Shown: positions 31,801 to 62,346, numbered from the stretch's first letter. The stretch: 64,000 bases of DNA from Candidatus Heimdallarchaeota archaeon (GCA_030603365.1 JAUVXV010000003.1:64001-128000), one strand, 5' to 3'. Numbers and translations are program-made. The notes: generated by a model from the sequence alone, not told the origin.

Positions 31801-33586
31801 TTATTGGGCTCATAAAGGTCCTGAGGAATACAAAGGTTCCTTGAATGTAACAGAAGAATATCCAACGTTTGAAACACCCGAAACAGATGGTAATTATACT
31901 TTGGTAGTTATATTAATTGATAATGTAAACAATGAAATTAGTTTTAATATCACTTTCTTGATTGATAATATAGTTTTAACTTTTAATAGACCTGATGATT
32001 TTGACGAGAGTACAAATGCGTATGTCAATACTACAAGTTTGATTTATGGTGAGAATGTCAGTTATATTGTAGAAGTCACAGATTCTCTTACTCATTCAGA
32101 GATAGTAGGTCTTAAAATAAATCTTAATAATTCAGCTTTTGATTTCATTGTTAATGTTACAAAACTTGATAGTATTACTTATGAAATTCTAATTGTAGCT
32201 AACAATGTCACTGATAGTATTTTTGCTAAAATAGAAATTCAATTCTATAAATGGGAAGAGAGTAAACAATATATCCAAATCTACTTGAAGGTGGATAAAA
32301 AAGAAGGATCTCTTTTCATTCATCAAAGTAGTGTTGATACAGTTACCTATGGAGAGATTATTCCTGTCATAATATATCTTCAAAATGACTTAGGTTTAAA
32401 TGAGACAATTCTGTCTATAGTAGTTAATGGATTGATTACTGATATCAAAATTTTAGGTGATGGGTTGTATCAATTTAACTTCTCATCCACCGCACTAACT
32501 AGTAAAGGAAATCATACTCTGGACATTCAAGTTCAATCTGAGTTCTTTTATGGTTCGAACAGTGTTTTTACAATTGAGGTTTTACCAATTCAGTCTCAGA
32601 TATCAGTTGAAGTTACGAGTTATGAAGTACTAGAAGAATCACAAGTAGTTATCAGAGGTTTACTAACAGCAGACGATGGAACACCTCTTTCTGACCAAGA
32701 AATACTGGTTTATGTTTATATTGTTGAAGAATCAAATGGAAGACTTGTCTATGCTTTGAATATAGACGATTATGATGATTATAGAATTATTACAGTGTAT
32801 ACAGATGCTGATGGTTACTTTACTGCATCTTTCCAGATGTATGAGGGAATAGAGTATATTGACATAGAAGTATTCTATGATGGTAATAATCATCATGATA
32901 TCTCCTCTTCTGTTCTAGATGCTTCTGTTTATTCAATGAAACCTCCAGGACTTCCATCTTGGTTATTATATACAATTATTGGTGGAAGCGTGCTTTTGGG
33001 TTTGATTGTTTCACTAATTATATACAAGATAGTTAAACCTAAACCATTTGAAGCTTTAATGGAAAAAATAACAGATGAACAAATAGCACTAAATTATTCT
33101 ATTATGTCTCCAGGTGTTGTTCTTTCCATTTTTGATCAAAGAAAAGGACCTGTACCTCTAGTAATGGATCATAGTTTAGAGCTAGGACAGTATGTAGGAC
33201 GACTAAGAATGGGGACAGAGAATTTCATACTTAAAATCTCTGACCAGGCATACAGCTCGCTTGGTTTCGAAGAACATGATACAGGTCGTAGAGTTGGTTC
33301 TATTGTTCTACCAGGAGAAAAAATGGTGGGATGGGTACATGGAATACAACTACCAAATGAAACCGCAAGAGGGGGATTTGAAAATCTTTCATTAATCGTT
33401 CTAGCAGATTCAGAATATAGTAATTTACTATTAAATTATCAAGATTACTTATACGATGAAGCAGACAAGTTAGTTGAAGTTCTAAAGGCAAAAAACCAGC
33501 TCGATAATATTAAAATCATTATAGAGGGAATAAGGAAGAAATCAGTAATAATAATGCTAGCAGCGCAAGGGATAGAAGAGAAATAA
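28826..33586 (+). CDS. Giant single-pass surface protein: signal peptide, Ig-like repeats, TM, cytoplasmic uDENN/longin-like domain (paralog A)
   Basis: Repeating YxWD...GxHxLxIxAxD...D..P units; TM WLLYTIIGG...IIY; tail with IFDQRKGP and LPNETARGG. Confidence 0.75.
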   Translation: MKRVELGKITSILLIALCFNSVLYYNISNSRNEDFNPFYPGTEIIDNSPPDDYFYDDYDDYNPFSNRIKTEIFEGDYKTQAFFSFNTFTTNLDGNGSGYQWTEYDAIPSHSAVGMDAERFGTGDITNAVVPSVNDTYYLMGADYWGSGRYALMYSPLLTYDTTISDKVHYIFNMHRDLNDDPFNSRFNNMDSTLKITLWHFETSTLTSTEITSVEYLMPKINTPTDTEYWEWLETNSSFSSYTIPAGDRFKITYMMKYNDVGATAGHYTLDIMADGLYSDTGILGTNLDWTITDGVHSNNYVITSTDGMLGVQLYMIEENTPDITFYNAINDTVYYTAQEMNIDVTPGSTSSYRWDYGSWQSFSTSTTTTLPAVHAWHYLEIRASETEYNNTRYEYYQFIYDASETNFELHAPYTNGSTITGGILLNFTVYYVDTATYEWDKNGTQFPLTDPYDIITPDFELDHNITIRTSDFYMNETLRYFFTFNSDLPSVTLDNVLNGGTYAPLKTIDVEIFDSVGIKDVQYHWDSDSNLTWTPATGNIYRTNLPLTDGVHVLHIYALDNYDQAFYTNFNFITDSNIFLVELQNLSNDSYVLGGETVKITIQKSNGTAYFVWDSGAVKVGTITSQTMTLAGANSLPTSVGSHNLTIIAFDTFDVEYVFYFKFIVDIEAPNIVPDEIYSFRRYVSSGTTMYFTITDNEVFGENLTVLISIDGTVNETLSAGAYFYNLDYLVDGTHSFYLYAIDLAGNSDILYVEFTIDNTPPELEYKIPELVPLGSDNYVPGNAEVIVTVSDAYSGVITYYTWGGEQHTFNESFVLPAENASGTLIIYAYDGLHTSTNITSIIIDIEAPSVTLIGMTNTTEEVNFYTALYFETSDDLGDNTIELVRYSWDILPGAWYTSSEHDFNVSVIPFYEHEDNVVFYVYMKDIVGNNHIEWFIFKIDDEPPNLDLEFYDASEEKWLDIGDSFFAQSNQTIRYNSYVNEPGELITFNYYWAHKGPEEYKGSLNVTEEYPTFETPETDGNYTLVVILIDNVNNEISFNITFLIDNIVLTFNRPDDFDESTNAYVNTTSLIYGENVSYIVEVTDSLTHSEIVGLKINLNNSAFDFIVNVTKLDSITYEILIVANNVTDSIFAKIEIQFYKWEESKQYIQIYLKVDKKEGSLFIHQSSVDTVTYGEIIPVIIYLQNDLGLNETILSIVVNGLITDIKILGDGLYQFNFSSTALTSKGNHTLDIQVQSEFFYGSNSVFTIEVLPIQSQISVEVTSYEVLEESQVVIRGLLTADDGTPLSDQEILVYVYIVEESNGRLVYALNIDDYDDYRIITVYTDADGYFTASFQMYEGIEYIDIEVFYDGNNHHDISSSVLDASVYSMKPPGLPSWLLYTIIGGSVLLGLIVSLIIYKIVKPKPFEALMEKITDEQIALNYSIMSPGVVLSIFDQRKGPVPLVMDHSLELGQYVGRLRMGTENFILKISDQAYSSLGFEEHDTGRRVGSIVLPGEKMVGWVHGIQLPNETARGGFENLSLIVLADSEYSNLLLNYQDYLYDEADKLVEVLKAKNQLDNIKIIIEGIRKKSVIIMLAAQGIEEK

Positions 33587-33600
33587 GAAGGAGGATTAAA

Positions 33601-36600
33601 ATGACTAGAAATAACAACAAGATTTTTGGACTAATACTTATAATTTTATGTTTTAATACAGTGACCCATCAAGAGATTCTAAACACAGAATCAACTAACT
33701 CTGATGTTGAAAACCTATTGAATGATCCTCCTTATACTCCAAGTTTTCCAGGCTATGTAGACAAAGCTGAAAATCCTGATGATAGTTCACTTATAACAAA
33801 TACCGAAATCGAGGGAGAGTTTCAAACTTTAGCATTTTTCCCTGGTGGAACAGGTAAAATTTATGGGGAATCTCGAGTAGGTGAGACCCTGATCAATGAT
33901 CCAGCAGGTGAGGATCCATATGATAGAAGAAATATTTTTGAATGGGTTACCTACGACGATATCAAAGATGATGGAACATTAAATAAAGAGATGTACTGGA
34001 GAGCTCTGAGTGATGAACCTCTTACTTGGCCGAATTCTACAGATTGGTTCTACATGAGAGAGAGAAATTCTCCACATGAACCTTCCAAAATTTATAGTCC
34101 AGTTTTCACAGAGGACTATGAAATCACAGGAAGAGTCTACTGGTTATCTTGGTTTGAATCAAATGACGATCCTCCTTTTTCAGAAGCAATAAACATTGGT
34201 TATCGTCAGAGTCTTTACCTCTTCAACCCAGCAGATCCTTCCAATCCCACTTTACTTGCTAGTATACAGAGTATATATTATGAACCTAACATCTGGGCAG
34301 GTCAAAGAACACACTTTGCAGATTTAGTTGGAACTACACTAATTCCTGCTGGTTATAGATTAAGATGGGATATTGAAATACGGTTCAGTTTAGTTCCTTC
34401 AGCAGGATCTTTTCTCCAGTATACTGGTTACCTACATACTGGTGGTGGTTCAACAACATGGACAATCGATGATCCTGATCCAATTTATGATAGCACATAT
34501 ACAATTAATAATGTGACAAGGATGTCAGGAATTCAACTTAGAATGCGTTCTAAAGGATATCCTACCATAAATGTGTTAGGAGCGACTGACAATGCTGTTT
34601 ATCAGGTTCTTCAGAATATGACTATCGATGTGACTGATGGTTCGATAAGTTCATATCAGTGGAATGGTGGAAGTTGGACTTCTTTTAGTGATTTAACGAC
34701 CACTTCTCTTCCTGATAATCATGGTTGGAATGAACTTGAAATAAAAGCAAGTGATCCAGTTTTTAACAACACAAAGATTGTTACTTATATCTTTGGATAT
34801 GATAAGTCCTTGATTAATGTTGTACTTAATAGTCCTCTTACGAATGGGTCGACTATAACGGGTGGAACTACCATTGATTTGGATGTTTTCAGTGTAAACC
34901 TAACAGAATACATGTGGGATAATAATGGAACGTGGGTTCTTTTAGAGAGTCCATATAACATAAGCGCTCCAGATTTTGATGGAGAACACATACTAACAGT
35001 TCGAACATCTGATTTCTACACTATTGAATCTGTTGTCTATATTTTTGTTTTCGATTCTACTAATCCAATAATTCAGTTATATAATGTAGTCAATGATACA
35101 ACGCATGCCCCCAACAAAGTAATTGAGTTCAATATTACAGATAATTCTGCTATTCAAACTGCTTACTATAATTGGGATTCAGGAACTGATCAATTATGGA
35201 CACCTGCACAAGGAACCATTTATCAAACTAGCCTACCAATAGGTATTGGATATCATGAACTAGTTACAAAAGCAAATGATACATTCGGTCATTATACTGA
35301 ACAATTCTATCGGTTTTATACAGATGATCAGTTGTTCTTATTAGAACTTGCTGAATTACGTAATGATTCTTATTATCTAGGTGGAGATGATGTTGTTATT
35401 AACGTTCAAAAAAGTAATGGAACCATTAAATATGTCTGGGATAGTGGTACTATCAAAGACGGGAGTATCATTGCATCTCAAATGACACTAACAGGTGTAG
35501 ATGCTATGCCTACTACAGCAGGTCCCCATAATTTAACAATTATAACTTTTGATCTTATAGGGACAATGTATGTTTTTTACTTTAACTTCATTGTAGACCT
35601 TGAAGCTCCAATCATAGATGGTTCAATAGTTTCTCTCTATAACGACACAAGATTTACGACTGATAACACAATGGAATTTATTATAACTGATAATTATACC
35701 CGAACAAACCAACTTATTATCTATATATCAATTGATGGTAAAGCTAACCAAACCCTTAACTCTCCTTTTGAATTACATCTCTATACATTTAACGATGCTA
35801 CTCACTATTTCACAATATATGTCTATGATTTAGCAGGTAATTACGCTATTCAGACCATCTTCTTCCATATTGATACTCTTGCACCTATAATTGAAATAGA
35901 TATCCCAAGTATGATTGTTTTTCAAGAAACGAATTATGTTACAACAGGGGCAGAAGTTATAGTTACTGTAGATGATTTAGATCCTCTTGTTGATACATTT
36001 TACTCTTGGTCAGGAGCTGCTAATTCAAGCTTCTCAGGAAGTATAACTTTAAGTTATGGAGATAGTACAGGTGATCTTCTAATATTCGCAAATGATTCGT
36101 TGGGACATCTTGATTATTATACTATTATTCTAATTATAGACAATACAGCCCCACAATTATTCCTTTCCTCCCCAAATGTGCTTGATGAAATTAATAGATT
36201 TACTGACCTCGAATTCGATATCAATGAAGAGAATATCCAAACAGTTAACTCTATTGGATATTATTGGGATAAATTGCCTTTTTATTATTTCAATACAACA
36301 TACGATAGTTACGATAGCTTTGCACTAAGAATTCCTTCCCTTTTCTTCGATGGACCAGGTGCATATGTAACAGGAAATACTGCAACTCTTGTAATAGAAC
36401 TTTATGACATCCTAGGACATTCTGTATTTGGTAGTTTCGATTTTATTATAGACAGAGATGCTCCTATTCCTGGTTTATACCTGAATGAAAGTGGTGTAAT
36501 AACGCAATTGGAAGAAGGAATCATTTATACAAGTTTAGGCGAAACACCTCTTCTGTATAAGAATGATACAAATGATGACATAGCGGATTTATACTGGATT

Positions 36601-38427
36601 TGGGATGATGACGATGCAACAGGTGATTCATTAGAATTTGGTGGTATTTTAACTGGTGGATATTTGCTAGTAGATATTGTGCCACCAGAAGATGGCCGTC
36701 ATTATCTAAGAGTAGTTTTAACAGATAATACGATAAGTAGTCAACCAAATTTTATAGAATATATTTTCAACATTACTGTAAATGATATTAATATTGATAT
36801 TACTGAACCTAATCCTGAAATGTGGGTTGAGGAAGCAGATTTCTTGTCTTACCATCATAGAATGAACTATACTGATTCATTTAGTTTTACTGTTAATATC
36901 ACAGATACAGTAGATGGTTTAGAAATTCCAGATTTGCAAAATAGAACTATTTCAAGAGTATATAATCTCTTAGCAAGCATTGTTCAACTTGACAATACTA
37001 TCTATGAATGTACTATTGTAGCTACTAATGTTACAAATGGTCTTGAAACACATATAGATTTTGAATTTTACTTAATCGACGGTGGTTCTCAGAAGCTAAG
37101 GTTTTACTTGATTGTAGATAAAAAACTTGGTAGTCTGGAAATACTTGATAAAACAGAACTTACAGTTCAATACGATGAGGATATCGATGTTTACATTGGG
37201 TTAAAAGATCATCTTAGTCAAAATCTTTCAATTATTTATGTTGAAGTCAACTCTCTGATTACTAGTTTTTACAATATAGAAAATACTACAGAATTCTGGT
37301 TCAGATATTCAACACATGGGTTAGAAGAAGGAGAGCATGCAATTACCATTTATGCAGAGAGTACATTTTATTATGCAAAATTGGAAGGTAATTTGACTTT
37401 CGAATTTACAGTCACTCCACTACCCATTTTCATAGATATACAAGTCTCCAATTCTACTGTTTTAGAAGGAACAGAATTTACAATAACTGCAGCATTAACC
37501 TTCCAAAATGGAACAGGATTTGCTGGACAACTTTTACACTTCTTTGTATACTCATATTCGTATGAAACAACAACAGGAGAAGTTTCAGCAGCAATCCCAA
37601 CAAATTATACAACTTATATTATATCAAACAGAACAACCAACATCAATGGTATAGCAACCATAATATTTACTATGTCAACTGAAATTGATTATGTCCTTAT
37701 TGCAGTTACTTATGATGGTGGTGATTTTGTTGACACTTCATACTCTGAATTTGATGAGAAGGTAGTTAAAATTTTTCTACCTGGTTTTCCAAGTTGGTTA
37801 CTTTATACTTTGATTGGTGGAAGTCTATTTGTAATTTTAATAATCTCCCTCATTGTTTATCGAGTAACACGAGGTAAACCATTCGAAGAAGTAATGGAAA
37901 TCGTAACAATTGATGAGATAAAAGAACGATATGAGACTTTATCACCTGGCGTGATTCTAACAATATTTGATCAGAAAAAAGGACCAATACCTCTTATTGC
38001 ATCTCATTCTCTAGACACAACTAGATATCTTGGTCGTATGCAGATTGGTGTTGAAAATTTTATGCTTAAAATAGCTGATCAAGCTTATAGCTCTCTAGGT
38101 TTTGAGGAGCATGATGTTGGAAGAAGAGTAGGTTCGATAATTCTTCCTACAGAGAAGATGATAGGATTTGTTCATGGTGTTCAACTCCCTAATAAGATGG
38201 CTCGAGGTGGTTTTGAAAATCTATCATTAATTGTTCTTGCAGATTCGGAATTTGGTAACTTATTACTAAATTATCAAGAATATATTTATGATGAAATTGA
38301 TGTTATTATTGAAGCTTTGAAGACTAAGAAGCATTTGAAACAAGTTGAAGAATTACTGCGAATAGTTAGACATAAATCAGTTAAGGTCATGCTTACCGCA
38401 GAAAAAGTTGAACAAAAGAAAGGATAA
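33601..38427 (+). CDS. Giant single-pass surface protein with cytoplasmic uDENN/longin-like domain (paralog B)
   Basis: Same architecture; tail with IFDQKKGP and LPNKMARGG; GGAGG before the ATG. Confidence 0.75.
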   Translation: MTRNNNKIFGLILIILCFNTVTHQEILNTESTNSDVENLLNDPPYTPSFPGYVDKAENPDDSSLITNTEIEGEFQTLAFFPGGTGKIYGESRVGETLINDPAGEDPYDRRNIFEWVTYDDIKDDGTLNKEMYWRALSDEPLTWPNSTDWFYMRERNSPHEPSKIYSPVFTEDYEITGRVYWLSWFESNDDPPFSEAINIGYRQSLYLFNPADPSNPTLLASIQSIYYEPNIWAGQRTHFADLVGTTLIPAGYRLRWDIEIRFSLVPSAGSFLQYTGYLHTGGGSTTWTIDDPDPIYDSTYTINNVTRMSGIQLRMRSKGYPTINVLGATDNAVYQVLQNMTIDVTDGSISSYQWNGGSWTSFSDLTTTSLPDNHGWNELEIKASDPVFNNTKIVTYIFGYDKSLINVVLNSPLTNGSTITGGTTIDLDVFSVNLTEYMWDNNGTWVLLESPYNISAPDFDGEHILTVRTSDFYTIESVVYIFVFDSTNPIIQLYNVVNDTTHAPNKVIEFNITDNSAIQTAYYNWDSGTDQLWTPAQGTIYQTSLPIGIGYHELVTKANDTFGHYTEQFYRFYTDDQLFLLELAELRNDSYYLGGDDVVINVQKSNGTIKYVWDSGTIKDGSIIASQMTLTGVDAMPTTAGPHNLTIITFDLIGTMYVFYFNFIVDLEAPIIDGSIVSLYNDTRFTTDNTMEFIITDNYTRTNQLIIYISIDGKANQTLNSPFELHLYTFNDATHYFTIYVYDLAGNYAIQTIFFHIDTLAPIIEIDIPSMIVFQETNYVTTGAEVIVTVDDLDPLVDTFYSWSGAANSSFSGSITLSYGDSTGDLLIFANDSLGHLDYYTIILIIDNTAPQLFLSSPNVLDEINRFTDLEFDINEENIQTVNSIGYYWDKLPFYYFNTTYDSYDSFALRIPSLFFDGPGAYVTGNTATLVIELYDILGHSVFGSFDFIIDRDAPIPGLYLNESGVITQLEEGIIYTSLGETPLLYKNDTNDDIADLYWIWDDDDATGDSLEFGGILTGGYLLVDIVPPEDGRHYLRVVLTDNTISSQPNFIEYIFNITVNDINIDITEPNPEMWVEEADFLSYHHRMNYTDSFSFTVNITDTVDGLEIPDLQNRTISRVYNLLASIVQLDNTIYECTIVATNVTNGLETHIDFEFYLIDGGSQKLRFYLIVDKKLGSLEILDKTELTVQYDEDIDVYIGLKDHLSQNLSIIYVEVNSLITSFYNIENTTEFWFRYSTHGLEEGEHAITIYAESTFYYAKLEGNLTFEFTVTPLPIFIDIQVSNSTVLEGTEFTITAALTFQNGTGFAGQLLHFFVYSYSYETTTGEVSAAIPTNYTTYIISNRTTNINGIATIIFTMSTEIDYVLIAVTYDGGDFVDTSYSEFDEKVVKIFLPGFPSWLLYTLIGGSLFVILIISLIVYRVTRGKPFEEVMEIVTIDEIKERYETLSPGVILTIFDQKKGPIPLIASHSLDTTRYLGRMQIGVENFMLKIADQAYSSLGFEEHDVGRRVGSIILPTEKMIGFVHGVQLPNKMARGGFENLSLIVLADSEFGNLLLNYQEYIYDEIDVIIEALKTKKHLKQVEELLRIVRHKSVKVMLTAEKVEQKKG

Positions 38428-38525
38428 TTCTTCTTCTTTTTACCGCCTTTATCGATATATTATTATTGTATTTTCCGACAATTATCATAAAGGTTATATT
38501 AACACTAGTAATTAGAGGCTCAATT

Positions 38526-40421
38526 ATGTCCTATCTCTTCGATGAACTATCAGGAAAAGAAGACAGCAAAGCTACAGTTGAAGATAAGATTCTTCTTATG
38601 GGTCTTCAAGCTGCAGGAAAAACTGCTATCAAAGACGTTGTCTTCTTCAACAAACAACCTGAAGAAGTTAACGATTATATGGCTACAGTACACTATCAAA
38701 GACAGTTCATTGATGAAGAACAAAAAAGTATGATTATAGACTCTGGTGGACAAGAAAGTTATTGGAATGAAGCTGTTACTCATTTTAGACATCTTGTTTT
38801 TTCCAATGTTAAGTTGTTAGTATGGATTGTAGATGTTACAAAACCAGAATTATTCGAAGAATCAGAAAGACGATTCAGTTTTACAATACGACAATATAAA
38901 AAAGAGAATCCAGATGGAAGCATCACTGTTTTATGCCACAAAGTTGATTTAGTTACTCCAGAAAAAATGATTGTAATTCATCAACATGTTAGAGATATGT
39001 TCAGTGATCCTCGTTTTGAAGTTGATTTCGAAAATACTAGTATCTACTACTCTGACAGTCTCAAAGAATTATTATTTACTATAATGGATGAAGCTGGTAT
39101 TAACACTAAACGATTCGAACTTATCTCTAATCTTGGTCAGAAAGTTGAAGAGAGTGATGAATTCCAGAGTTATGTTATGGAACATCAGGAAGATCCAAGA
39201 GTCCAACAGTTACGTGATTATTTAAATCCTGAACCTGAAGCTCTACTTCCTTCTTTTGGAAAATTAACTTTGCAATTCGATCTGAAAGAGTATGACATTG
39301 TTGAAATAGTACTTATTGAAAAAGAAACGAATTCTCCCATAGTTGGAGCTTCATCTCAAGCTAATGTAACTGCTGAAAATTCCATGGAATATCTTATTGG
39401 TCTTCATGATTTTAAGAATAAGTTAAAAGAAAATGGAGAAAGTATAGACCCAACAGGGACAGTGTTTACATCATCTACAGGAAAAGTACATGCATTGGTG
39501 TTCAGTCTTGATGTTAATTATCTCCTTATTACTTCTTTCGATCCAATAACTGACGAGAGGAAAGAATTACTTTTTGAGCTAATCCTTAGATTCGCTCAAT
39601 CAACAACTGCAGCTGCAGAAGCTCCTCCTCCTCCTAGTGCTCCAGCTGTTATTGAAGAACCAGTTGCTCAACCCGATCCAATCGCTGAACAACCTGTTGC
39701 ACAACCAGAACCAGTTAAAGCAGCTGAAGAAGTGGCAGTTGCTCAAGAAACAATTGAGGTTCAAGAAGAAATTCCAGTTGAAGTAGCGGCTCCATTAGAA
39801 GTTGAAACTGCTGTCCCGGAAGCAAAACCAATTAAAATTGAAGAGATATTAACTGCTGAAGAAAAAGATGCAGGATTTTTCGAACCAGCTATAGTTGGGG
39901 ATGAATTTCTAGGTAAGGAAGAGCCTGTTACAGTAGTTGAATCTGAACCAATTCCTGCCACAACGGAAGAAGTTACAAAAATCTCTCAACCTGAGGTACA
40001 AGAGAAAGTTGCTGAAGCTGTTTCTGGAGAAAGAGAAGTTAAAATTGAAGACCCAGTTCCAGTTGTAACACCTCCAACACCTCAACCTGCTAAAGTTGTT
40101 GAAGAAGGTGTTCCTGAACCTCCCAAAGTTGAACTTGAACCTGAACCAACTCCTATTACTGAGGAACCTAAGGTAGAACTAATTCCTGTTCTAGCTGAAG
40201 TAGGAACACCCAAACAAGATCCAGTTGAAGCTACAGGAGATGGATTAACGATTAATTTTTCAGCTGATGATATCAAAAACTTTGCAAACTTCTTAGTTCA
40301 GAAAAAAGAAATAATTCTAGATGAATCTATAAATATCGAAGATATTAAAGGACTGTCCAATTTCTTATTTAAAGGGATAACAGAAGATAAAGAAGAACAA
40401 AAAGAAGAAGAATCAGACTAA
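38526..40421 (+). CDS. Rag/Gtr-like GTPase + roadblock domain + long acidic Pro/Glu/Val-rich tail
   Basis: KILLMGLQAAGKT, ATV, DSGGQ, VFSNV, HKVD, TSIY; first ATG at 38526. Confidence 0.82.
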   Translation: MSYLFDELSGKEDSKATVEDKILLMGLQAAGKTAIKDVVFFNKQPEEVNDYMATVHYQRQFIDEEQKSMIIDSGGQESYWNEAVTHFRHLVFSNVKLLVWIVDVTKPELFEESERRFSFTIRQYKKENPDGSITVLCHKVDLVTPEKMIVIHQHVRDMFSDPRFEVDFENTSIYYSDSLKELLFTIMDEAGINTKRFELISNLGQKVEESDEFQSYVMEHQEDPRVQQLRDYLNPEPEALLPSFGKLTLQFDLKEYDIVEIVLIEKETNSPIVGASSQANVTAENSMEYLIGLHDFKNKLKENGESIDPTGTVFTSSTGKVHALVFSLDVNYLLITSFDPITDERKELLFELILRFAQSTTAAAEAPPPPSAPAVIEEPVAQPDPIAEQPVAQPEPVKAAEEVAVAQETIEVQEEIPVEVAAPLEVETAVPEAKPIKIEEILTAEEKDAGFFEPAIVGDEFLGKEEPVTVVESEPIPATTEEVTKISQPEVQEKVAEAVSGEREVKIEDPVPVVTPPTPQPAKVVEEGVPEPPKVELEPEPTPITEEPKVELIPVLAEVGTPKQDPVEATGDGLTINFSADDIKNFANFLVQKKEIILDESINIEDIKGLSNFLFKGITEDKEEQKEEESD

Positions 40422-40423
40422 GT

Positions 40424-41653
40424 TTAAACTGGTCTGCTGTCATCATATCTTCTATATTCTAAATCTCCATCAAGAAAGATTGGTATTTCTCTTATACCTT
40501 CTACACATTCATGTAATGGGAACATCTCAACTGATGTTGCACCAAATCCTTTTTGGACTTTAATACCTCTTTCAAGATTTTCAGAATTTTCTACTGCAAC
40601 ATCGATTATAGATTTCTGAAGATTACGACCACAAATATCACATTTAAATGAGATTGACTGTTCTACTCTTCTTTCAATTGTTTCACCTTTCTCAAGACCT
40701 TTTTTGAGTAGGTAATCTACTAAAGTGCCTTTCATCTTTATTCTTGCTCTTCCTATTAGTTCATCTGCTTGGAAAAGCTCTTTCATCTCAGCGGCAAGAT
40801 TCATGAAGTATTCTATCTCTTCATCTACTGAATGCTGAGGAGGAAAGACAGTTGTTAGAATAAGATCTTGATCTACTTCTCTCATATATACTCTGTTTTC
40901 ATCAAATGAGAATGTCACATAATCTAATTGTAATGTTGGTGAAAACATCTTGGCAAGATCATTTTTTAGTTTAACAAAATTGAATCCTGTATATCTCTCT
41001 GGTTGAGAATAGAGCATTAGACCTTGAGCAGTTGATAATGAAAGAAAAACCAAATCTTGTTTGCTAAAAGCTTCCTTAATTTTAACAGACTTTGTATCAT
41101 CTTTTGGAAAGACATATGCAATCACTTGTTGCATTGCGTCCCAGATTGTATCTTCAAAGATTGAAGTTGCAAATAGATCAGCATTCGTAAATTTGTCAAT
41201 CTCAAAAATATCTTTTATTGATTGTAAAACAGGTTCTCTTTTATTTGGTGGAACAACATCCATTTTATGTGCAAAAACATAAATTCTTGCTCCCTCTGAT
41301 AGTTGTTTAGCGTTTTCCATTGTCAGATCAAAATAATACTTAGATCTCATAATGTTTGAAGCATCAGAAATATCGATAACGAAAATGAATGCTTTTACAT
41401 CACTGAAGGTTCTTTCTTTGTATTGTTCAAATACTTCATTCAAGTAATTGGATTGCCCTCCAACATCAAATAGGTTAATGGCACTTCCTGCAAGATTGAA
41501 CAGTTTTCTGTTAATACGAACAGTCGCAGGGTTCATTGATGTTGCTTCTGGAGCAAAGCCTTCGAAAACTACTTGACGTATAGAAGTTTTACCAGACTGA
41601 GATAAGCCAAGAACGACAATTTTGGATTCTAATTCATTTCCACCAGTGTACAT
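40424..41653 (-). CDS. Rag/Gtr-like GTPase + roadblock domain + C-terminal Zn-binding domain
   Basis: GLSQSGKT, PATV, FDVGGQ, HKMD, TSIFED; CDIC...HEC at the C-terminus. Confidence 0.85.
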   Translation of the reverse strand: MYTGGNELESKIVVLGLSQSGKTSIRQVVFEGFAPEATSMNPATVRINRKLFNLAGSAINLFDVGGQSNYLNEVFEQYKERTFSDVKAFIFVIDISDASNIMRSKYYFDLTMENAKQLSEGARIYVFAHKMDVVPPNKREPVLQSIKDIFEIDKFTNADLFATSIFEDTIWDAMQQVIAYVFPKDDTKSVKIKEAFSKQDLVFLSLSTAQGLMLYSQPERYTGFNFVKLKNDLAKMFSPTLQLDYVTFSFDENRVYMREVDQDLILTTVFPPQHSVDEEIEYFMNLAAEMKELFQADELIGRARIKMKGTLVDYLLKKGLEKGETIERRVEQSISFKCDICGRNLQKSIIDVAVENSENLERGIKVQKGFGATSVEMFPLHECVEGIREIPIFLDGDLEYRRYDDSRPV

Positions 41654-47868: not shown

Positions 47869-48132
47869 CTAACTCCCCAACGTTAGAAAGAAATCTAGTT
47901 GTTCTCTGATAAATGCTTCATCAGCACTACCAATAATGCGTTGATTGTTAGGAAGAACTATTGTAGGTATTGCAACTATCTGATACTCTTCTGCTTTTGC
48001 TATATCCTTGGAAACATCAATTATTTCAAGCTCTAGATGATCTGAATCTGCAATAATGTGTCTTAAAACACCTTCCAAATAAGGACACCAACTACAGGAT
48101 GGACTCTTGAATAGTATTATTTTAAGACTCAT
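47869..48132 (-). CDS. Thioredoxin-fold protein (KaiB-like C-terminal half)
   Basis: CSWC motif; IDV.K....AEEY.I.AIPT....RIIG. Confidence 0.8.
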   Translation of the reverse strand: MSLKIILFKSPSCSWCPYLEGVLRHIIADSDHLELEIIDVSKDIAKAEEYQIVAIPTIVLPNNQRIIGSADEAFIREQLDFFLTLGS

Positions 48133-48140
48133 TATAACAC

Positions 48141-49547
48141 CTAATCGACAATTTCTATTAATGGTATTTTCTCCTTATATTTCACTACTTTGGGTAGGAA
48201 GGTCGCTCCTGTTGAACTTTTTATACACTCAATATATGTTGTATAATCTTCTCTAGAAAATCTGATTATAATATCTGCAGTTGTTCGCAATCTTGCTAAC
48301 ATTTCTCTACTAATAGCATTGAAGTTTATGAATGAATGAGCTACAGCTCTCTTCTCCTTAATATTGAAGGATTGGAGTGCGAAATAACGCAAGAATTCAG
48401 ATTCAGAAAGAATATTAGCATCATCTGTAAGATCTCCATAAACGACTACTTTCTGATTCGATTTTTGAAATGCTTCCATCAATTCAACAGTTACAGAAAT
48501 CATATCATCTGTTGTCATTAGTTGACTCATTTCTCTAGCTTCTATTGCAGTTACTGAACGATTATACTTGTCAATGAATACGATATTTCCTTTATTCATA
48601 AAAGGTTCAATGTCACAATCAGCTTTTTTGAAGTCTTCAATAATCCTAGATGAATACATATGTACATTAGAATGAATAATTATTCCCTTGTCCTTTTCAA
48701 GATTGTAACATAAAGTACTCAAAAATAATGGAAAATAATTTGTTTCGCCATCAACTTCTATCAATACAACACTCCCAGAAGGAATACCTCCTCCAAGCAA
48801 ATTATCTAGTTTTTCTATACCTGATGATTCTTCATGTATTATAGATACTGGAGGTTGTTCTGACCTTAGGATGGATATGCCATCTCTATTGATAATGAAC
48901 CTGTTCTCAGAATTAATTGGTTTTGCTGACCTTAGTTTTGGAATTGAGATTCGTTTAATGAGTTGATTGTTTTTTAATTCAGTTCGAATCTTAATTACAC
49001 CATCAACAAGAAACTCCTCTATGGTGGAATATTCCTCGTTCATCCGGGATTCAGCAGTTAGAACTAGCACTGCATCTTCATTAGTGATTTCCCGTATGAA
49101 ATCCATGAAATTGCTTCTAGCAGTTTTTTCATATTTGAACTCAGCAAAGAAAGCTGAAATTGAATCAAAAATTATCATTTTTGCATTGATAGTTTGCATT
49201 CTATTTTTGGTTCGAGCAATAATAGCTGATAAATCAAACCTATCTGTCTGAACTAGATTTGTTCCCATGGGTTTTAGAGACATCTTTTCTAGAAGTAATA
49301 ATCCTTTTTCTACATATGAATCCAGATCCATATTAAATGATTTACCATAAATCATCAATTTCTCAATATCCACTTCTGTTGAGATAAACAAGACCGGAAT
49401 GCCTGCTTTTAGAGCTCCAAGAGTCATAAAGAGTGAGAGAACTGTCTTCCCTGATCCGGCAGTTCCTTTAATTGCATAGCAGAAGCTTGTCCTCAAACCT
49501 CCGTCCATCATTTTATCAAGTTCTTCTATGCCAGTAGAAATAATCAT
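48141..49547 (-). CDS. Double-domain KaiC-like ATPase
   Basis: ISTGI.ELD.M..GG, GTAGSGKT, FDSIS, EEFLVDGVI, PKLR; second domain SSGI..LD.LLGGGIP with degenerate P-loop. Confidence 0.85.
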   Translation of the reverse strand: MIISTGIEELDKMMDGGLRTSFCYAIKGTAGSGKTVLSLFMTLGALKAGIPVLFISTEVDIEKLMIYGKSFNMDLDSYVEKGLLLLEKMSLKPMGTNLVQTDRFDLSAIIARTKNRMQTINAKMIIFDSISAFFAEFKYEKTARSNFMDFIREITNEDAVLVLTAESRMNEEYSTIEEFLVDGVIKIRTELKNNQLIKRISIPKLRSAKPINSENRFIINRDGISILRSEQPPVSIIHEESSGIEKLDNLLGGGIPSGSVVLIEVDGETNYFPLFLSTLCYNLEKDKGIIIHSNVHMYSSRIIEDFKKADCDIEPFMNKGNIVFIDKYNRSVTAIEAREMSQLMTTDDMISVTVELMEAFQKSNQKVVVYGDLTDDANILSESEFLRYFALQSFNIKEKRAVAHSFINFNAISREMLARLRTTADIIIRFSREDYTTYIECIKSSTGATFLPKVVKYKEKIPLIEIVD

Positions 49548-54269: not shown

Positions 54270-54443
54270 AAAACAATGACAATTGAAACCTTCAAAATCA
54301 TTTTATATAATGAAGTTAAAACTAATCAATAGACATAATAAATTGTATTACAGTTAACGAAAACGTTAAATTAACTAGAATTACTATATGATTGTTTATA
54401 CTAGCAGTAATACCAGCTCAGTTAGGTAAAAATAGGTGAATGA

Positions 54444-55454
54444 ATGTCTTTCTACGAGTTTCGAAAACGTATTCTAGAAGAGAAGCAAAAAAGAGAAAAG
54501 CAACAAGGTAGACAAGGTGGAACAAATGACTCAAAACAAGAAACTATCATTGGTAAGAATAAGTTCAGTGTAGCATTATTGGGTTTAGAAAGAGCTGGTA
54601 AGACTTCCTTAGTAAAGAAATTATTAAAACAGGAAGATATAGTGGTCAGACCAACTTATGGAGTTAATCTAGAAAATTATCAATATAGGGATCTAAACTT
54701 TACTTGTTTTGATCTTGGAGGTCATCAGCCATTTCGATTAAGTCTGTGGAAAAAATTCATTGAAAGAGCAGACGGGGTGATGTATCTTGTTGATTCAGCT
54801 GACCATGCAAGGTTTGAAGAATCAAAACAAACCTTCTGGCATTATATTAACTTTGCAAAACAAAACAGTCCAGTTTTATTTTTAGCTAATAAGAGCGATT
54901 TACCAAATTCTAAAGAGCTTTCAGAAATCAATGGACATTTCGAATTAGATAAATTTCTAAGAAATCTAAGACCATTTAATATCAAGAAATGTTCAGCCTT
55001 AACTGGACAAGGAGTATACGAAGCTTGGGACTGGATGGTTGATGTGCTCTGCGGTGCACAACAATGGAAAGTTAAGATAGGAGCCGCTGTACTTGCAGAT
55101 GTTGAAGGTAATATCGTATCCGAAGCTATCTTCGGAAAACCTAGTGAACAAGCAGTAATAGCTAACGATTTCAAAAAACTCAAAGAATTGACTCGTCTTT
55201 TTGCCATTGAGTCCAAGGAGAGCATTCAATCTATTAAACTTGAAAGTCTCTTCAAAAAACATGTAAGTCATGTTAAAAGAGGTGCTTATTGCCTCTCAGT
55301 TATGATTGATCCAATCGATCCAGTTACTAGAGCTCAGCAAATTCAATTACGAATTCTAGAGAATTTTAGCAGAAATCCTGTTGAAGTTCAGAAAAATCTA
55401 AATGAAGTATTTGAAAGCAAGTTTCCATTAGAAGTAGAAGGAGGACGTCGTTAA
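54444..55454 (+). CDS. Arf/Sar-family GTPase with C-terminal longin/roadblock-like domain
   Basis: GLERAGKT, PTYG.N, FDLGGH, W, VDSAD..RF.ES, NKSD, CSALTGQG..E..DW. Confidence 0.88.
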   Translation: MSFYEFRKRILEEKQKREKQQGRQGGTNDSKQETIIGKNKFSVALLGLERAGKTSLVKKLLKQEDIVVRPTYGVNLENYQYRDLNFTCFDLGGHQPFRLSLWKKFIERADGVMYLVDSADHARFEESKQTFWHYINFAKQNSPVLFLANKSDLPNSKELSEINGHFELDKFLRNLRPFNIKKCSALTGQGVYEAWDWMVDVLCGAQQWKVKIGAAVLADVEGNIVSEAIFGKPSEQAVIANDFKKLKELTRLFAIESKESIQSIKLESLFKKHVSHVKRGAYCLSVMIDPIDPVTRAQQIQLRILENFSRNPVEVQKNLNEVFESKFPLEVEGGRR

Positions 55455-56450
55455 TTGAGTAGCTACTTGTCCTTCATCCGAGATAAACTTATTTCTTCAC
55501 AAGAGAGGAAAATTCCTCAATGTGCAATTTTAGGTTTAGAAGGATCAGGTAAATCAAGTGTAGTAAGTCGTCTACTTTATGGAACTGTTTCAGAAGATCA
55601 ACCAGACCAATCAACATGTTATATCAATATAACTTATGGAAAATCAACAATTACAATTCTTGAAGCCGATGAAGAAACTTCCCGAGAGAGTCCTTATTTC
55701 CAAGATATTCTTAGCAAAATTGATGGGATAGTTTTCGTAATTGATACTCAATCAATAAGACATGTAGAGGCTTCTTTTGAATATATATTCAGTTTATTTG
55801 ATAAGATACCTCAAACAACTTCAATATTATTCTTAGCAAATAAAATTGATATGCCAGATGCTGTGCCTTTTCCAGATTTATTACAGGATCCAGCTTTTCA
55901 AGTAATCATGGATGATATCAACAGATCTGTGTCAATCTATCCCGTTAGTATAAAAACTGGTGAGAACTTTTACACTGCATTTGATTGGGTTATCTCAAGA
56001 ATGACTGGCAGAACCCCCTTACGTGAAGAAGTTACTCCTAAACGAGTTATTATACTTCAGGAAGGTGGAGTTCCTGCTTTTGACCATACTTTTGATGCTT
56101 CAATTGCGGAGCATGACAGTACTTTGTTGGGAGGGTTAATTAGCGCATTAAATATCATGGCTTCCACCATATTTGAATCACAATCAGTAATGGACGTGGT
56201 AAAACTTGGTGGATATAAAATGGTAATTAGAAAAATGGAAGGATGGAGTATCGTACTATTTGTTGATCGTGATGATAGTGAATCAAAGGCTCAATCTCTA
56301 GCCGAAGAGATTCTGAATGCTTTCCAAGAAGAAAGACAGCGTGATCCATCTAAAGACTTGCCAAAGCAGATTAAGTATGAATTTTTAACCAAAATTCCAG
56401 AAATTGCTATCTTATTAGATCAACAACCAATAAGCGAAGATGAATATTAA
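55455..56450 (+). CDS. Degenerate Arf-like GTPase with C-terminal longin-like domain
   Basis: GLEGSGKS, NKID and SIKTG present; G3 replaced by LEADEE; tail with GGVP.F and LLGGLISAL. Confidence 0.75.
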   Translation: MSSYLSFIRDKLISSQERKIPQCAILGLEGSGKSSVVSRLLYGTVSEDQPDQSTCYINITYGKSTITILEADEETSRESPYFQDILSKIDGIVFVIDTQSIRHVEASFEYIFSLFDKIPQTTSILFLANKIDMPDAVPFPDLLQDPAFQVIMDDINRSVSIYPVSIKTGENFYTAFDWVISRMTGRTPLREEVTPKRVIILQEGGVPAFDHTFDASIAEHDSTLLGGLISALNIMASTIFESQSVMDVVKLGGYKMVIRKMEGWSIVLFVDRDDSESKAQSLAEEILNAFQEERQRDPSKDLPKQIKYEFLTKIPEIAILLDQQPISEDEY

Positions 56451-56461
56451 GGAGAAAACAA

Positions 56462-57232
56462 ATGATAAATCCAAATATATCAAAAGAACCATCATTGGTG
56501 TTCAGTGTCTTTAAGGATTATGGACCTGAAATTCTATTCAATAATTCTACTTTAGATGAGAATACTGCATTAACTTTAGTCATGAGTGGTATGACTCTTG
56601 TTGAAATGGATAAAACTTCCATTGGCAGAGTAGATGGTTCAAAAAATCCAAAAATGCTTGGACCTATCCCTGTTCCAGAAAATGAACACTTAAAAGCAAT
56701 AGCAATTCCTTTTGAGACAGAAATAACTTCCTCCTCAGATGAAAGGATAGCAGCTGCAGGACATCGTTTATGTGTCGCATATTTCCTTTTTGAAGGTATT
56801 GCAGTAAGAGATGTTCTAGATAGTTATGGCTTAATAGAACCATACTTTACCTTGATAGGAAGGAGCATGCAGAAAGAGTCAAATATTAATCCTACTTCAA
56901 TTAAACAGCTTTATACTCGTATGATTGACATGTTTTCTGGTAAAATTCCAAGAATCTTTGCTATAAATGCTGATAATTCACTAAAAGAAATGATTGGTAA
57001 AAGATTGGAATATGCTGATACTTACTTACTTTGTGATTTAGATAAAAATGAAATGTATGTCCTTTTATATAATCCATCGATAGATGTATGGAGAAGAAGA
57101 GACATCTACAAAGTAGCTTCAGAGTTAAATTCAAGTATGTTCAGAAGTGCTATGAGAATTAAAACCATTGAAGATATTAAAGAAATGGTTCGAATTCTTG
57201 GAATACTTAACATTGAAATTGCACCAGTTTAG
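56462..57232 (+). CDS. uDENN/longin-like + gelsolin-like domain protein
   Basis: N-terminal FSVFKDYGP...DER; C-terminal PRIFAI...L...DTYLLCD...EMYV...A.EL; AAGGAG upstream. Confidence 0.5.
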   Translation: MINPNISKEPSLVFSVFKDYGPEILFNNSTLDENTALTLVMSGMTLVEMDKTSIGRVDGSKNPKMLGPIPVPENEHLKAIAIPFETEITSSSDERIAAAGHRLCVAYFLFEGIAVRDVLDSYGLIEPYFTLIGRSMQKESNINPTSIKQLYTRMIDMFSGKIPRIFAINADNSLKEMIGKRLEYADTYLLCDLDKNEMYVLLYNPSIDVWRRRDIYKVASELNSSMFRSAMRIKTIEDIKEMVRILGILNIEIAPV

Positions 57233-57282
57233 AAACGAGCATTTTCTTTTTTCAATACCTTTAGGAAAGATATAGCTTCCGT

Positions 57283-60975: not shown

Positions 60976-62346
60976 ATGCGTTCACCTCGTCGAAGTATAA
61001 TCGGGAGTTATCGTTATAGTGTAGTCATAAAGCCTACAAAGGCAGAATATAGTGATTCTATGTCTGGAGTATTGGAACTTTATGACGGAAAACATGTTAT
61101 AGAGACTCATAAATTTGATACTTTTGATCAATTAGCTTCAACTATAATCAATTACTGGGAGAAAAAACTTGGTTCAGATGTTAATGTTCATAGATTTTCT
61201 AACTGGTTATCTGAATATTTCTCTGATATAGGAATAACTAACATTAATTTTTACCAGATGCTAGAAACAGTAATAGGTTTAGGTCAAGGAGTTGCTCTGC
61301 AATCTTCGGGAGTAGCAATTCGAGAGGCTAAAGTAATTCAAGAATACTTAGGGTCAACAGATGATGAGGTAGAAAAAGCGGTTAAACTACAAGCAGTAGG
61401 AACATTTGTGGATGTTCGTGGAGAAGGTATGGAACCTGTACCCGAGAAGTTGAGACCAGAAGAACCTCCAACAGATACTGTTCTCAAACCTAGCGAGATT
61501 TTCAAGACAGCTGAAACCATTTCTCCAGTTGTAACTCATTTACCAACTGTAAAGGAGGAAGAAAAAGAAAAACCAGCCCCACCAACAAATACTTTACTTA
61601 AACCTAGTGAAGTTTTGAAAGAAAGAGATTCGGTGGTTTTTGCTGAAGAACCTTCTAAAGCTCCTACTCAAGTTTCAGGTGATCCAGTTATTACGGCACC
61701 TACAGAAAAAACTACTCGAGATACTCCTCCTACCGATTCATTACTTAAGCCTAGTGAGTATCTCAAGAAAAGAGAAACCATTGAGGTCATATTTGAAATT
61801 GATATAAAACCTAGTACTATTCCAGAAGAAAAAAAAATTAAATCTGTGATAGGAGAATCAAAGACAATTTTAACACATCAAAAGCTGAAACCACCTTCAG
61901 AGATTTTGTTGAAACCAAGTGAATCGATTACAGAAATAGAAGAAAGATCACTAAAACCACCTATTAGAATAGATCCTGAAGTAAAGAAAATCCCCTCTCC
62001 CCCTTTATCTGAGAAAGTTGAATCTGATGAAGATGAAATCAAATCAGAAATAGATGAATCTGGAAAAGAAGTTATTGATTTTGAGATAGAAGTTAAAGCA
62101 GAAAAAGAACCTTTAGAGGTAACATTCAGAGAAATTAAAACCATTGATAAATTAAGGGTAACAGATATAATGGGTGTAGGTGATAAAATTGCAATGTTGC
62201 TTAAAGAAGGGGGATTTGATAGTATCCAAAAAATAATGGAAACTACACCTGAAAAACTTAGCAAACTTAGAGGTATTGGAGTAACTACTGCAAAGAAATT
62301 AATTTACGGAGCGAAAGCTTTGGTGAAAAGGGAAGTAGAAGAATAA
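60976..62346 (+). CDS. Protein with repetitive acidic/Pro-rich linker and C-terminal helix-hairpin-helix domain
   Basis: IMGVGDKIA..L...G.....L..LRGIGVTTA..L; repeated LKPSE motifs. Confidence 0.7.
   Translation: MRSPRRSIIGSYRYSVVIKPTKAEYSDSMSGVLELYDGKHVIETHKFDTFDQLASTIINYWEKKLGSDVNVHRFSNWLSEYFSDIGITNINFYQMLETVIGLGQGVALQSSGVAIREAKVIQEYLGSTDDEVEKAVKLQAVGTFVDVRGEGMEPVPEKLRPEEPPTDTVLKPSEIFKTAETISPVVTHLPTVKEEEKEKPAPPTNTLLKPSEVLKERDSVVFAEEPSKAPTQVSGDPVITAPTEKTTRDTPPTDSLLKPSEYLKKRETIEVIFEIDIKPSTIPEEKKIKSVIGESKTILTHQKLKPPSEILLKPSESITEIEERSLKPPIRIDPEVKKIPSPPLSEKVESDEDEIKSEIDESGKEVIDFEIEVKAEKEPLEVTFREIKTIDKLRVTDIMGVGDKIAMLLKEGGFDSIQKIMETTPEKLSKLRGIGVTTAKKLIYGAKALVKREVEE

Follow-up and report, generated by a model that had tools for sequence, protein, structure and literature searches.

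A conserved operon of Heimdallarchaeaceae encoding an Arf-related GTPase, its pseudo-GTPase paralogue and a longin–gelsolin protein with candidate GTPase-activating function

The operon and its host

The stretch of 64,000 nucleotides analysed here, referred to below as the window, comes from a Candidatus Heimdallarchaeota archaeon genome (GCA_030603365.1, JAUVXV010000003.1:64001-128000) that is 89% complete; the names of homologues place the host in the Heimdallarchaeaceae (Asgard archaea). At window positions 54444-57232 it carries three co-oriented genes, which encode a GTPase of the Arf-related (ArfR) kind, a degenerate paralogue of this GTPase, and a protein combining a longin domain with a gelsolin-like domain. 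Gene 1 (54444..55454, + strand, 336 aa), gene 2 (55455..56450, +, 331 aa) and gene 3 (56462-57232, +, 256 aa) are separated by gaps of 0 and 11 nt, in agreement with a preliminary description of this DNA. A Shine–Dalgarno-like motif, GGTGA, lies 5′ of gene 1 (54433..54443, +), and similar motifs belong to gene 2 (GGAGG) and gene 3 (AAGGAG). Gene 2 starts with TTG at a position where its orthologues have Met. A T-rich, terminator-like tract downstream of gene 3 (57240..57255, +) may end the transcript before a convergent gene. The arrangement is not a chance one, since the gene order is conserved in 35 loci and the ratio of nonsynonymous to synonymous substitution rates (dN/dS) is 0.01–0.06 per domain across the operon genes.

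Gene 1, an Arf-related GTPase with a Sar1-like histidine

The product of gene 1 comprises a predicted N-terminal helix (aa 3-21), a G domain (aa 40-203), and a longin-like C-terminal domain (aa ~210-330). It matches Pfam Arf with 134.5 bits (3.5e-39) and Gtr1_RagA (PF04670) with 21.5 bits, under the cut-off. In the tree, the Rag and RasL clades are separate from gene 1, which lies outside the RagGtr clade, and a Gtr1_RagA-type G domain is not supported. Motifs G1–G5 are intact and, together with His94, invariant in 26 orthologues. Leu in G1, DxGG, NKxD and SA are features of the Arf type, while the third G1 position is Glu here and Asp in a second order that shares the operon.

The FDLGGH motif that had led to the name “Sar1-like” is indeed present (D90 and H94, with His in 26/26 orthologues), but the specific relationship implied by this name did not hold. 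The best matches of gene 1 by sequence, in the PDB and in Foldseek are the Asgard protein HodArfR1 (Foldseek rank 1) and Arf1; over the switch region, HodArfR1 scores 55 bits, Arf1 49, and Sar1 42, although by shape Sar1 is a close second (Z 20.2 vs. 21.7). Aligned with one fungal Sar1, gene 1 has PTYGVN instead of the Sar1 switch I sequence PTxHPT and lacks the 7-residue Sar1 insertion before β6. His at the position of H94 is found in 4/8 intact ArfR-fusion paralogues of this genome (gene 1 and three others), and in the second order a solo sibling of gene 1 carries Gln, whereas the operonic copy carries His. An Arf-family phylogeny, suggested as a check in the preliminary description, did not recover a clade of gene 1 with the single Sar1 included, nor did it reject one (p-value of the approximately unbiased test, p-AU, 0.3); a clade of gene 1 with gene 2 is likewise left unsettled by the trees. 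The ArfR study (bioRxiv 10.1101/2024.02.28.582541) was likewise unable to trace each eukaryotic subfamily to a particular ArfR. Because ArfR and Arf1 outscore Sar1, the His is widespread, and neither of two Sar1 hallmarks is present, gene 1 is best classed, from its sequence, as an intact Asgard ArfR GTPase bearing a Sar1-like residue, and specific Sar1 orthology was rejected.

The hydrophobic moment of the predicted helix 3-21 is no higher than that of shuffled sequences. As for the C-terminal domain, its strands and helices follow the longin order in the model, the same order as in the tail of gene 2; it is called a longin because of this secondary structure and of its profile homology to gene 2, the fold searches having been filled by the G domain.

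Gene 2, a maintained pseudo-GTPase

Gene 2 is homologous to gene 1 across both domains (hhalign 99.9%) and matches Pfam Arf at 6.6e-16. All of 22 orthologues keep G1 and the NK of G4 unchanged, and all have lost, without an indel, the Thr of G2 and the Gly of G3; the DxxG motif, already noted as missing, is replaced by E-A-D-E at residues 70-73. With dS near saturation, dN/dS amounts to 0.03–0.06 for the gene, 0.04–0.06 for the G domain, and 0.07–0.21 for the switch region. These values are far below 1, and a decaying pseudogene was rejected on this ground. Gene 2 is thus best described as a maintained full-length pseudo-GTPase under purifying selection, one that may have retained nucleotide binding.

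The tail of gene 2 (aa ~193-315) belongs to a family with about 30 domains in this genome, whose profile matches Bet5 (1.4e-5) and Mon1 (8e-5) and of which 12/27 members match Fuz_longin_1. These profile matches assign it to the Bet5/Mon1-type longins, a dimer-forming kind, and no profile similarity was found between this tail and the longin of gene 3. The longin-like ends proposed earlier for both GTPases were therefore borne out, that of gene 2 by profile tests of its family and that of gene 1 by homology and secondary structure.

The longin domain of gene 3

Pfam and NCBIfam contain nothing that matches gene 3, PF11704 included, and ESM Atlas features gave no usable match. An AlphaFold2 model (predicted local distance difference test, pLDDT, 84.5) shows two domains, and per-domain fold searches find in them both the longin and the gelsolin fold that had been predicted for the two halves. 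The N-terminal domain (aa 1-160; 56462..56941, +) is a longin of the FLCN/SMCR8/NPRL2 type. Its residues 8-160 match a Loki longin (VIA Z 11.4), Lst4 (11.0) and FLCN (10.5; root-mean-square deviation, rmsd, 2.9 with 131 aligned residues), as well as a C9orf72-SMCR8 entry (Z 9.8) and a GATOR1 entry (Z 8.7). These longins, typical of GTPase-activating proteins (GAPs), rank above the adaptin and TRAPP longins, and Foldseek agrees in placing GATOR1 entries at the top. A C-terminal DENN or NPRL2-type module is absent from gene 3, which has the gelsolin-like half instead.

Across 118 homologous longins, G21 (117/118), P22 (113/118), G67, D93 and R95 (114/118) are each kept in at least 90%. G21-P22 is the GP motif of the FLCN, SMCR8 and NPRL2 longin GAPs; PMC12290439 describes it as specific to GAP-type longins and as occurring, together with an arginine, in Asgard longins. 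R95 belongs to a D93-x-R95 motif within the β4–β5 loop, which makes this a candidate finger loop, because the catalytic Arg of Avl9-type GAPs sits between β4 and β5 according to the Avl9 preprint. Direct profile alignment of the gene 3 family to FLCN or NPRL2 (PDB) failed, and the FLCN-type Arg was therefore mapped through Asgard FLCN-like proteins. R95 is near-invariant and lies in the right loop, but this indirect alignment places the canonical Arg on A97, and R95 is at most a candidate equivalent of FLCN R164 and SMCR8 R147; a GAP activity of gene 3 is predicted from its longin and should be treated as a candidate function.

Related longins occur elsewhere in the window and in the genome. 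Two single-pass membrane proteins of 1586 and 1608 aa (28826-33586 and 33601-38427, +) have cytoplasmic tails formed by GP-longins that carry ARGG, the canonical motif of FLCN and SMCR8, and the two genes lie directly ahead of a convergent pair of RagGtr-family GTPases with long C-terminal extensions (38466-40421, +, and 40424-41653, −; PF04670 5e-26 and 9e-36). The preliminary description had likened gene 3 to these tails (28826-38427): both are indeed GP-longins and related to each other (E about 2e-4, scaled to a search of genome size), but the tails carry ARGG and not DER. As candidates for a longin GAP coupled to a receptor, the giant membrane proteins may come closer to the textbook case. 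A custom profile finds canonical FLCN-type longins in this genome, and Asgard proteins of 410–450 aa (loci L127-L141) with a D-x-x-A-R-G loop pass the Pfam Folliculin cut-off, several of them being convergent with a response-regulator-like gene; PF06218 has almost no matches across Asgard genomes. Longins with the D-x-R motif also stand behind apparent receiver and PAS domains (C15:347788-348639 and C2:74375-75271, domains judged by eye), in keeping with reported connections between NPRL2-like longins and two-component systems. Further ArfR-fusion clusters lie at C4:2151-5374 and C4:17793-19650; in one cluster, a 438-aa protein with a DxR longin at its end is placed between two ArfR fusions, and another tandem ArfR-fusion pair has one His-type member. 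In total, 2/8 DxR longins of this genome adjoin a GTPase, vs. a background of 3%.

The gelsolin-like domain of gene 3

The C-terminal part (aa 161-256; 56942..57232, +) is a single ProGel-like gelsolin domain: residues 162-252 match ProGel 7C2F (VIA Z 10.6, rmsd 2.5, 86 aligned), and its profile finds ProGel with an E-value of 1.3e-5. The WRRR motif, correctly pointed out at the outset, occupies residues 210-213, where the long helix of the domain begins; its R213 is kept in 33/36 closer orthologues and lost in wider homologues. Between the two orders, the domain is conserved at 45% vs. 38% for the longin. The W-x-G (DWG) motif of actin-binding gelsolins is absent, with neither Trp nor Gly at the aligned position. 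ProGel itself binds actin weakly, with a dissociation constant of about 337 µM (PMC7444086). An actin link of gene 3 is possible in view of its ProGel homology and of the three actins that this genome encodes, along with other gelsolins.

The GAP function of Sec23 relies on an Arg that its gelsolin-like domain contributes (PMC11914678), and a Sec23-type GAP within a proto-coat had been proposed for this operon. Sec23 and Sec24 are among the gelsolin-fold matches (Z 7.4 and 6.6), but no zinc-finger, trunk, β-barrel or helical domain is present, the longin and gelsolin domains covering all 256 residues of gene 3. Judging from the aligned range and from the residue numbering of Sec23, the Sec23 finger site presumably corresponds to residues 243-245, to within about one residue; Arg occupies positions 243, 244 and 245 in 1, 13 and 0 of 36 orthologues, respectively. 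Membership in the Sec23 family was rejected on account of the absent domains and of R244 being found in 13/36 orthologues only, and the conserved candidate catalytic surface lies on the longin, as it does in FLCN, SMCR8 and NPRL2. A search for Sec23_trunk had no match in this genome, but it had none elsewhere either and is no proof that the domain is missing there.

Distribution and gene linkage

Orthologues of gene 2 are found in 27/30 other Heimdallarchaeaceae genomes and in 11/12 genomes of a family in another order. This family includes the whole-genome shotgun prefix JABLTI01, the GTDB name of Gerdarchaeales. Of 43 loci, 35 preserve the full three-gene order, 5 are truncated where a contig ends, and 3 represent the solo Gln sibling. 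Ca. Heimdallarchaeum endolithica and aukensis, whose genomes are complete, also have the unit, and domain identity across the 35 order-keeping loci of the two orders is 25–46%. In one relative, gene 1 is split (L038:4055-5064), probably by an assembly frameshift. The second order has a Ras-like GTPase of 173–175 aa as a fourth gene in 10/10 loci (L194-L203), which is absent from every Heimdallarchaeaceae locus examined, two complete genomes included.

The longin–gelsolin family was matched in all sampled Heimdallarchaeial genomes and in few others, and solo paralogues of gene 3 exist. In Hodarchaeales a paralogue forms part of a four-gene unit consisting of an intact RagGtr, a degenerate RagGtr, the longin–gelsolin gene, and another RagGtr (L065:4593-8323, L143-L163); the degenerate RagGtr is found in 21/22 genomes, and the complete set of four in 19/21 loci. 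One Hodarchaeales longin–gelsolin gene is split (L161:2487-3290), again probably by an assembly frameshift. Copies next to ArfR genes and copies next to Rag genes fall into two distinct clades (support 100/99 each). In the ArfR and the Rag operons alike, this fusion thus comes after one intact and one dead GTPase, the class of GTPase differing between the two. As kin are not independent, the linkage counts as two observations, not dozens.

Predicted complex

A complex of the three gene products with GTP was predicted together with three controls, the score covering gene 3 only. Gene 3 scored 0.51 vs. 0.00 for the best control, including the control in which gene 1 was replaced; at least 58% of contacts were shared between runs, and the partner pLDDT was at least 74. 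The pass mark is reached by 58/80 solved complexes and 2/110 mismatches, but only 7 of the 80 solved complexes pass it with a score at or under 0.60, as do both of these mismatches. For the trimer suggested in the preliminary description, the prediction thus separates gene 3 from the controls, though in the weak range, and lends weak support to its association with the other two proteins.

Possible mechanism and its alternatives

What is observed is how the proteins are built and folded, which motifs are conserved, and how the genes are linked; the steps built upon these observations here are conjectural. The explanation that we tentatively prefer, with somewhat less confidence than would make it probable, is a Rag-like dimer of an ArfR and a pseudo-ArfR, with gene 3 serving as the longin GAP that turns the active subunit off via R95. 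Genes 1 and 2 would dimerise via their C-terminal longins. Gene 1 would cycle between GTP and GDP with a His in place of the Arf catalytic Gln (compare Sar1 and SR-beta) and would need an external GAP because of this replacement, while gene 2 would bind nucleotide without switching, as a fixed scaffold. Gene 3 would dock its GP loop and β4–β5 loop onto the G domain of gene 1, where Arg95 would speed hydrolysis. Finally, the gelsolin-like domain might localise the GAP, possibly on actin filaments; this is the weakest step and, taken alone, an unlikely one.

The GAP reading is favoured because the longin of gene 3 is closest to GAP-type longins and has both the GP motif and a loop Arg, because the operon order is kept in two orders and paralleled in the Rag-linked clade, because a DxR longin stands between two ArfR fusions in a second cluster of this genome, and because the solo sibling of gene 1 has Gln where the operonic copy has His. 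As a module of a GTPase, a pseudo-GTPase and a candidate GAP, the operon is therefore supported much as first described, together with both folds of gene 3. Several observations weigh against a GAP role. In the profile alignment, the FLCN-type Arg falls on Ala97, about two residues from R95, and the β4–β5 loop is 5–6 residues longer than the canonical D-x-x-A-R-G loop, which exists separately in longins of Heimdallarchaeia, even within the window. Longins that are fused to receiver and PAS domains and remote from any GTPase (6/8 in this genome) retain DxR as well, so the motif may be structural. In two sister families, orthologues of gene 3 lie without genes 1 and 2 (13 loci). The trimer score lies in the weak range and came without an interface; moreover, the pass may reflect memory, as the SMCR8-Arf1 and FLCN-RagC complexes are solved.

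The shift of Arg95 from the folliculin register makes a non-catalytic function of gene 3 the main rival, though a somewhat unlikely one. Gene 3 would then be an adaptor or effector, or a guanine nucleotide exchange factor (GEF), whose longin senses the nucleotide state of gene 1 and whose gelsolin domain relays it to actin or some other target, D93-R95 being structural. The DxR longins remote from GTPases, a gelsolin domain conserved like the longin between the orders, and the three actins all agree with such a role, and the majority of longins serve as platforms or as GEFs (PMC10933270). Against it stand the GP motif, reported in PMC12290439 to be specific to GAP-type longins, the near-invariant Arg exactly in the finger loop, and the fact that GAP subunits are the best fold matches.

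It is very unlikely that genes 1 and 2 use their longin tails to build a platform of the TRAPP or Mon1-Ccz1 kind for another GTPase, on which gene 3 would act. The gene 2 tail family does match Bet5 and Mon1, and an extra GTPase follows the longin–gelsolin gene both in the 10/10 second-order loci and in Hodarchaeales, so that the Ras-like fourth gene or the downstream RagGtr could be this GTPase. However, no such gene is found in the examined Heimdallarchaeaceae loci, and the collapse of the complex score once gene 1 is replaced also argues, weakly, against the platform. Mere co-regulation, with gene 3 working apart from genes 1 and 2, is more improbable still: the unlinked orthologues in the two sister families and the solo paralogues would be expected from it, but linkage extends across two orders, a separate clade shows parallel linkage to a Rag pair, and the complex prediction gives a weak pass. 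Least probable of all is a Sar1-like GTPase turned off by a gelsolin-domain arginine as in Sec23 to form a proto-coat, for despite His94, the Sec23/24 fold matches, the R213 of WRRR kept in closer orthologues and the p-AU of the Sar1 grouping, the remaining Sec23 domains are missing, R244 is poorly kept, R213 belongs to another helix and disappears among the wider homologues, ArfR and Arf1 outscore Sar1 even when the switch region is compared, and the N-terminal helices are no more amphipathic than shuffles.

Relation to known systems

The closest longin folds are those of the longin GAPs FLCN-FNIP (acting on RagC), NPRL2-NPRL3 in GATOR1 (RagA), SMCR8-C9orf72 (Arf1), and monomeric Avl9/DENND6 (Arf). 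Gene 3 shares with them the GP motif between β1 and β2, an Arg in the β4–β5 loop and a link to GTPases of the Arf/Rag class, but differs in its longer D-x-R loop and in having a gelsolin-like domain and no DENN; its operon contains no second GAP-type longin, and its GAP activity is only predicted. The Asgard GP/arginine longins (PMC12290439) and NPRL2-like longins (bioRxiv 10.1101/2020.10.19.343400), as covered by the consulted parts of these sources, belong to the same superfamily and occur in Heimdallarchaeia; gene 3 is of the DxR subtype and outside PF11704. The same parts report neither a longin–gelsolin fusion nor an ArfR-pair operon, and PMC12290439 asks whether the partners of Asgard GP-longins are ArfR or Rag GTPases.

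Genes 1 and 2 resemble the Rag/Gtr heterodimer and the operonic “Rag-like” GTPase-roadblock pair of Prometheoarchaeum MK-D1 (PMC10933270) in being adjacent paralogues with a G domain and a C-terminal domain of a dimerisation type, so that their architecture would fit a Rag-like heterodimer formed through the C-terminal domains. They differ in their ArfR G domains, one dead subunit, the Bet5/Mon1-type longin tail, and a co-encoded candidate regulator. Among Asgard ArfR/AArf proteins, of which multidomain AArfs are known (bioRxiv 10.1101/2024.02.28.582541; PMC11914678), the G domain of gene 1 is closest to HodArfR1 and GerdArfR1; it is set apart by His for Gln, a C-terminal longin, a pseudo-GTPase partner, and no clear amphipathic helix. 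The thorarchaeal ProGel/1DGelX (PMC7444086) and the gelsolin-like domain of Sec23 have a single gelsolin fold in common with gene 3, ProGel being the best match, whereas in gene 3 the domain follows a longin, has lost W-x-G and is unaccompanied by other Sec23 domains.

Other features of the window

Downstream of the operon, a gene at 60976-62346 (+) encodes a 456-aa protein that repeats LLKPSE-type motifs in a central part of low complexity and has a helix-hairpin-helix domain at its C-terminus. At 47869-49547 (−), a putative KaiC-like ATPase stands beside a small putative thioredoxin-like CxxC protein.

Significance

All parts of the operon are of known kinds: Asgard ArfRs, the MK-D1 GTPase-roadblock pair, GP-longins, and ProGel. 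In the literature surveyed, no paper was found on the longin–gelsolin fusion, on the dead partner or on either operon, and no native GAP has been identified there for any Asgard ArfR GTPase. The operon names a concrete set of three soluble candidate proteins for the partner question raised in PMC12290439, the single residues R95 and H94 make this question testable, and the Hodarchaeales operon provides a matching Rag set. If the proposed mechanism is true, longin-GAP control of Arf- and Rag-type switches, along with the active/dead heterodimer, would already have existed in the archaeal relatives of eukaryotes. It is conceivable, although distinctly unlikely, that one actin-anchored longin–gelsolin family serves as an arginine-finger GAP for active/dead heterodimers of both ArfR (in two orders) and RagGtr (in Hodarchaeales). 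In that case, the Arf/Rag dual specificity seen in SMCR8 vs. FLCN/NPRL2 would predate eukaryotes and would have begun as cytoskeleton-linked signalling.

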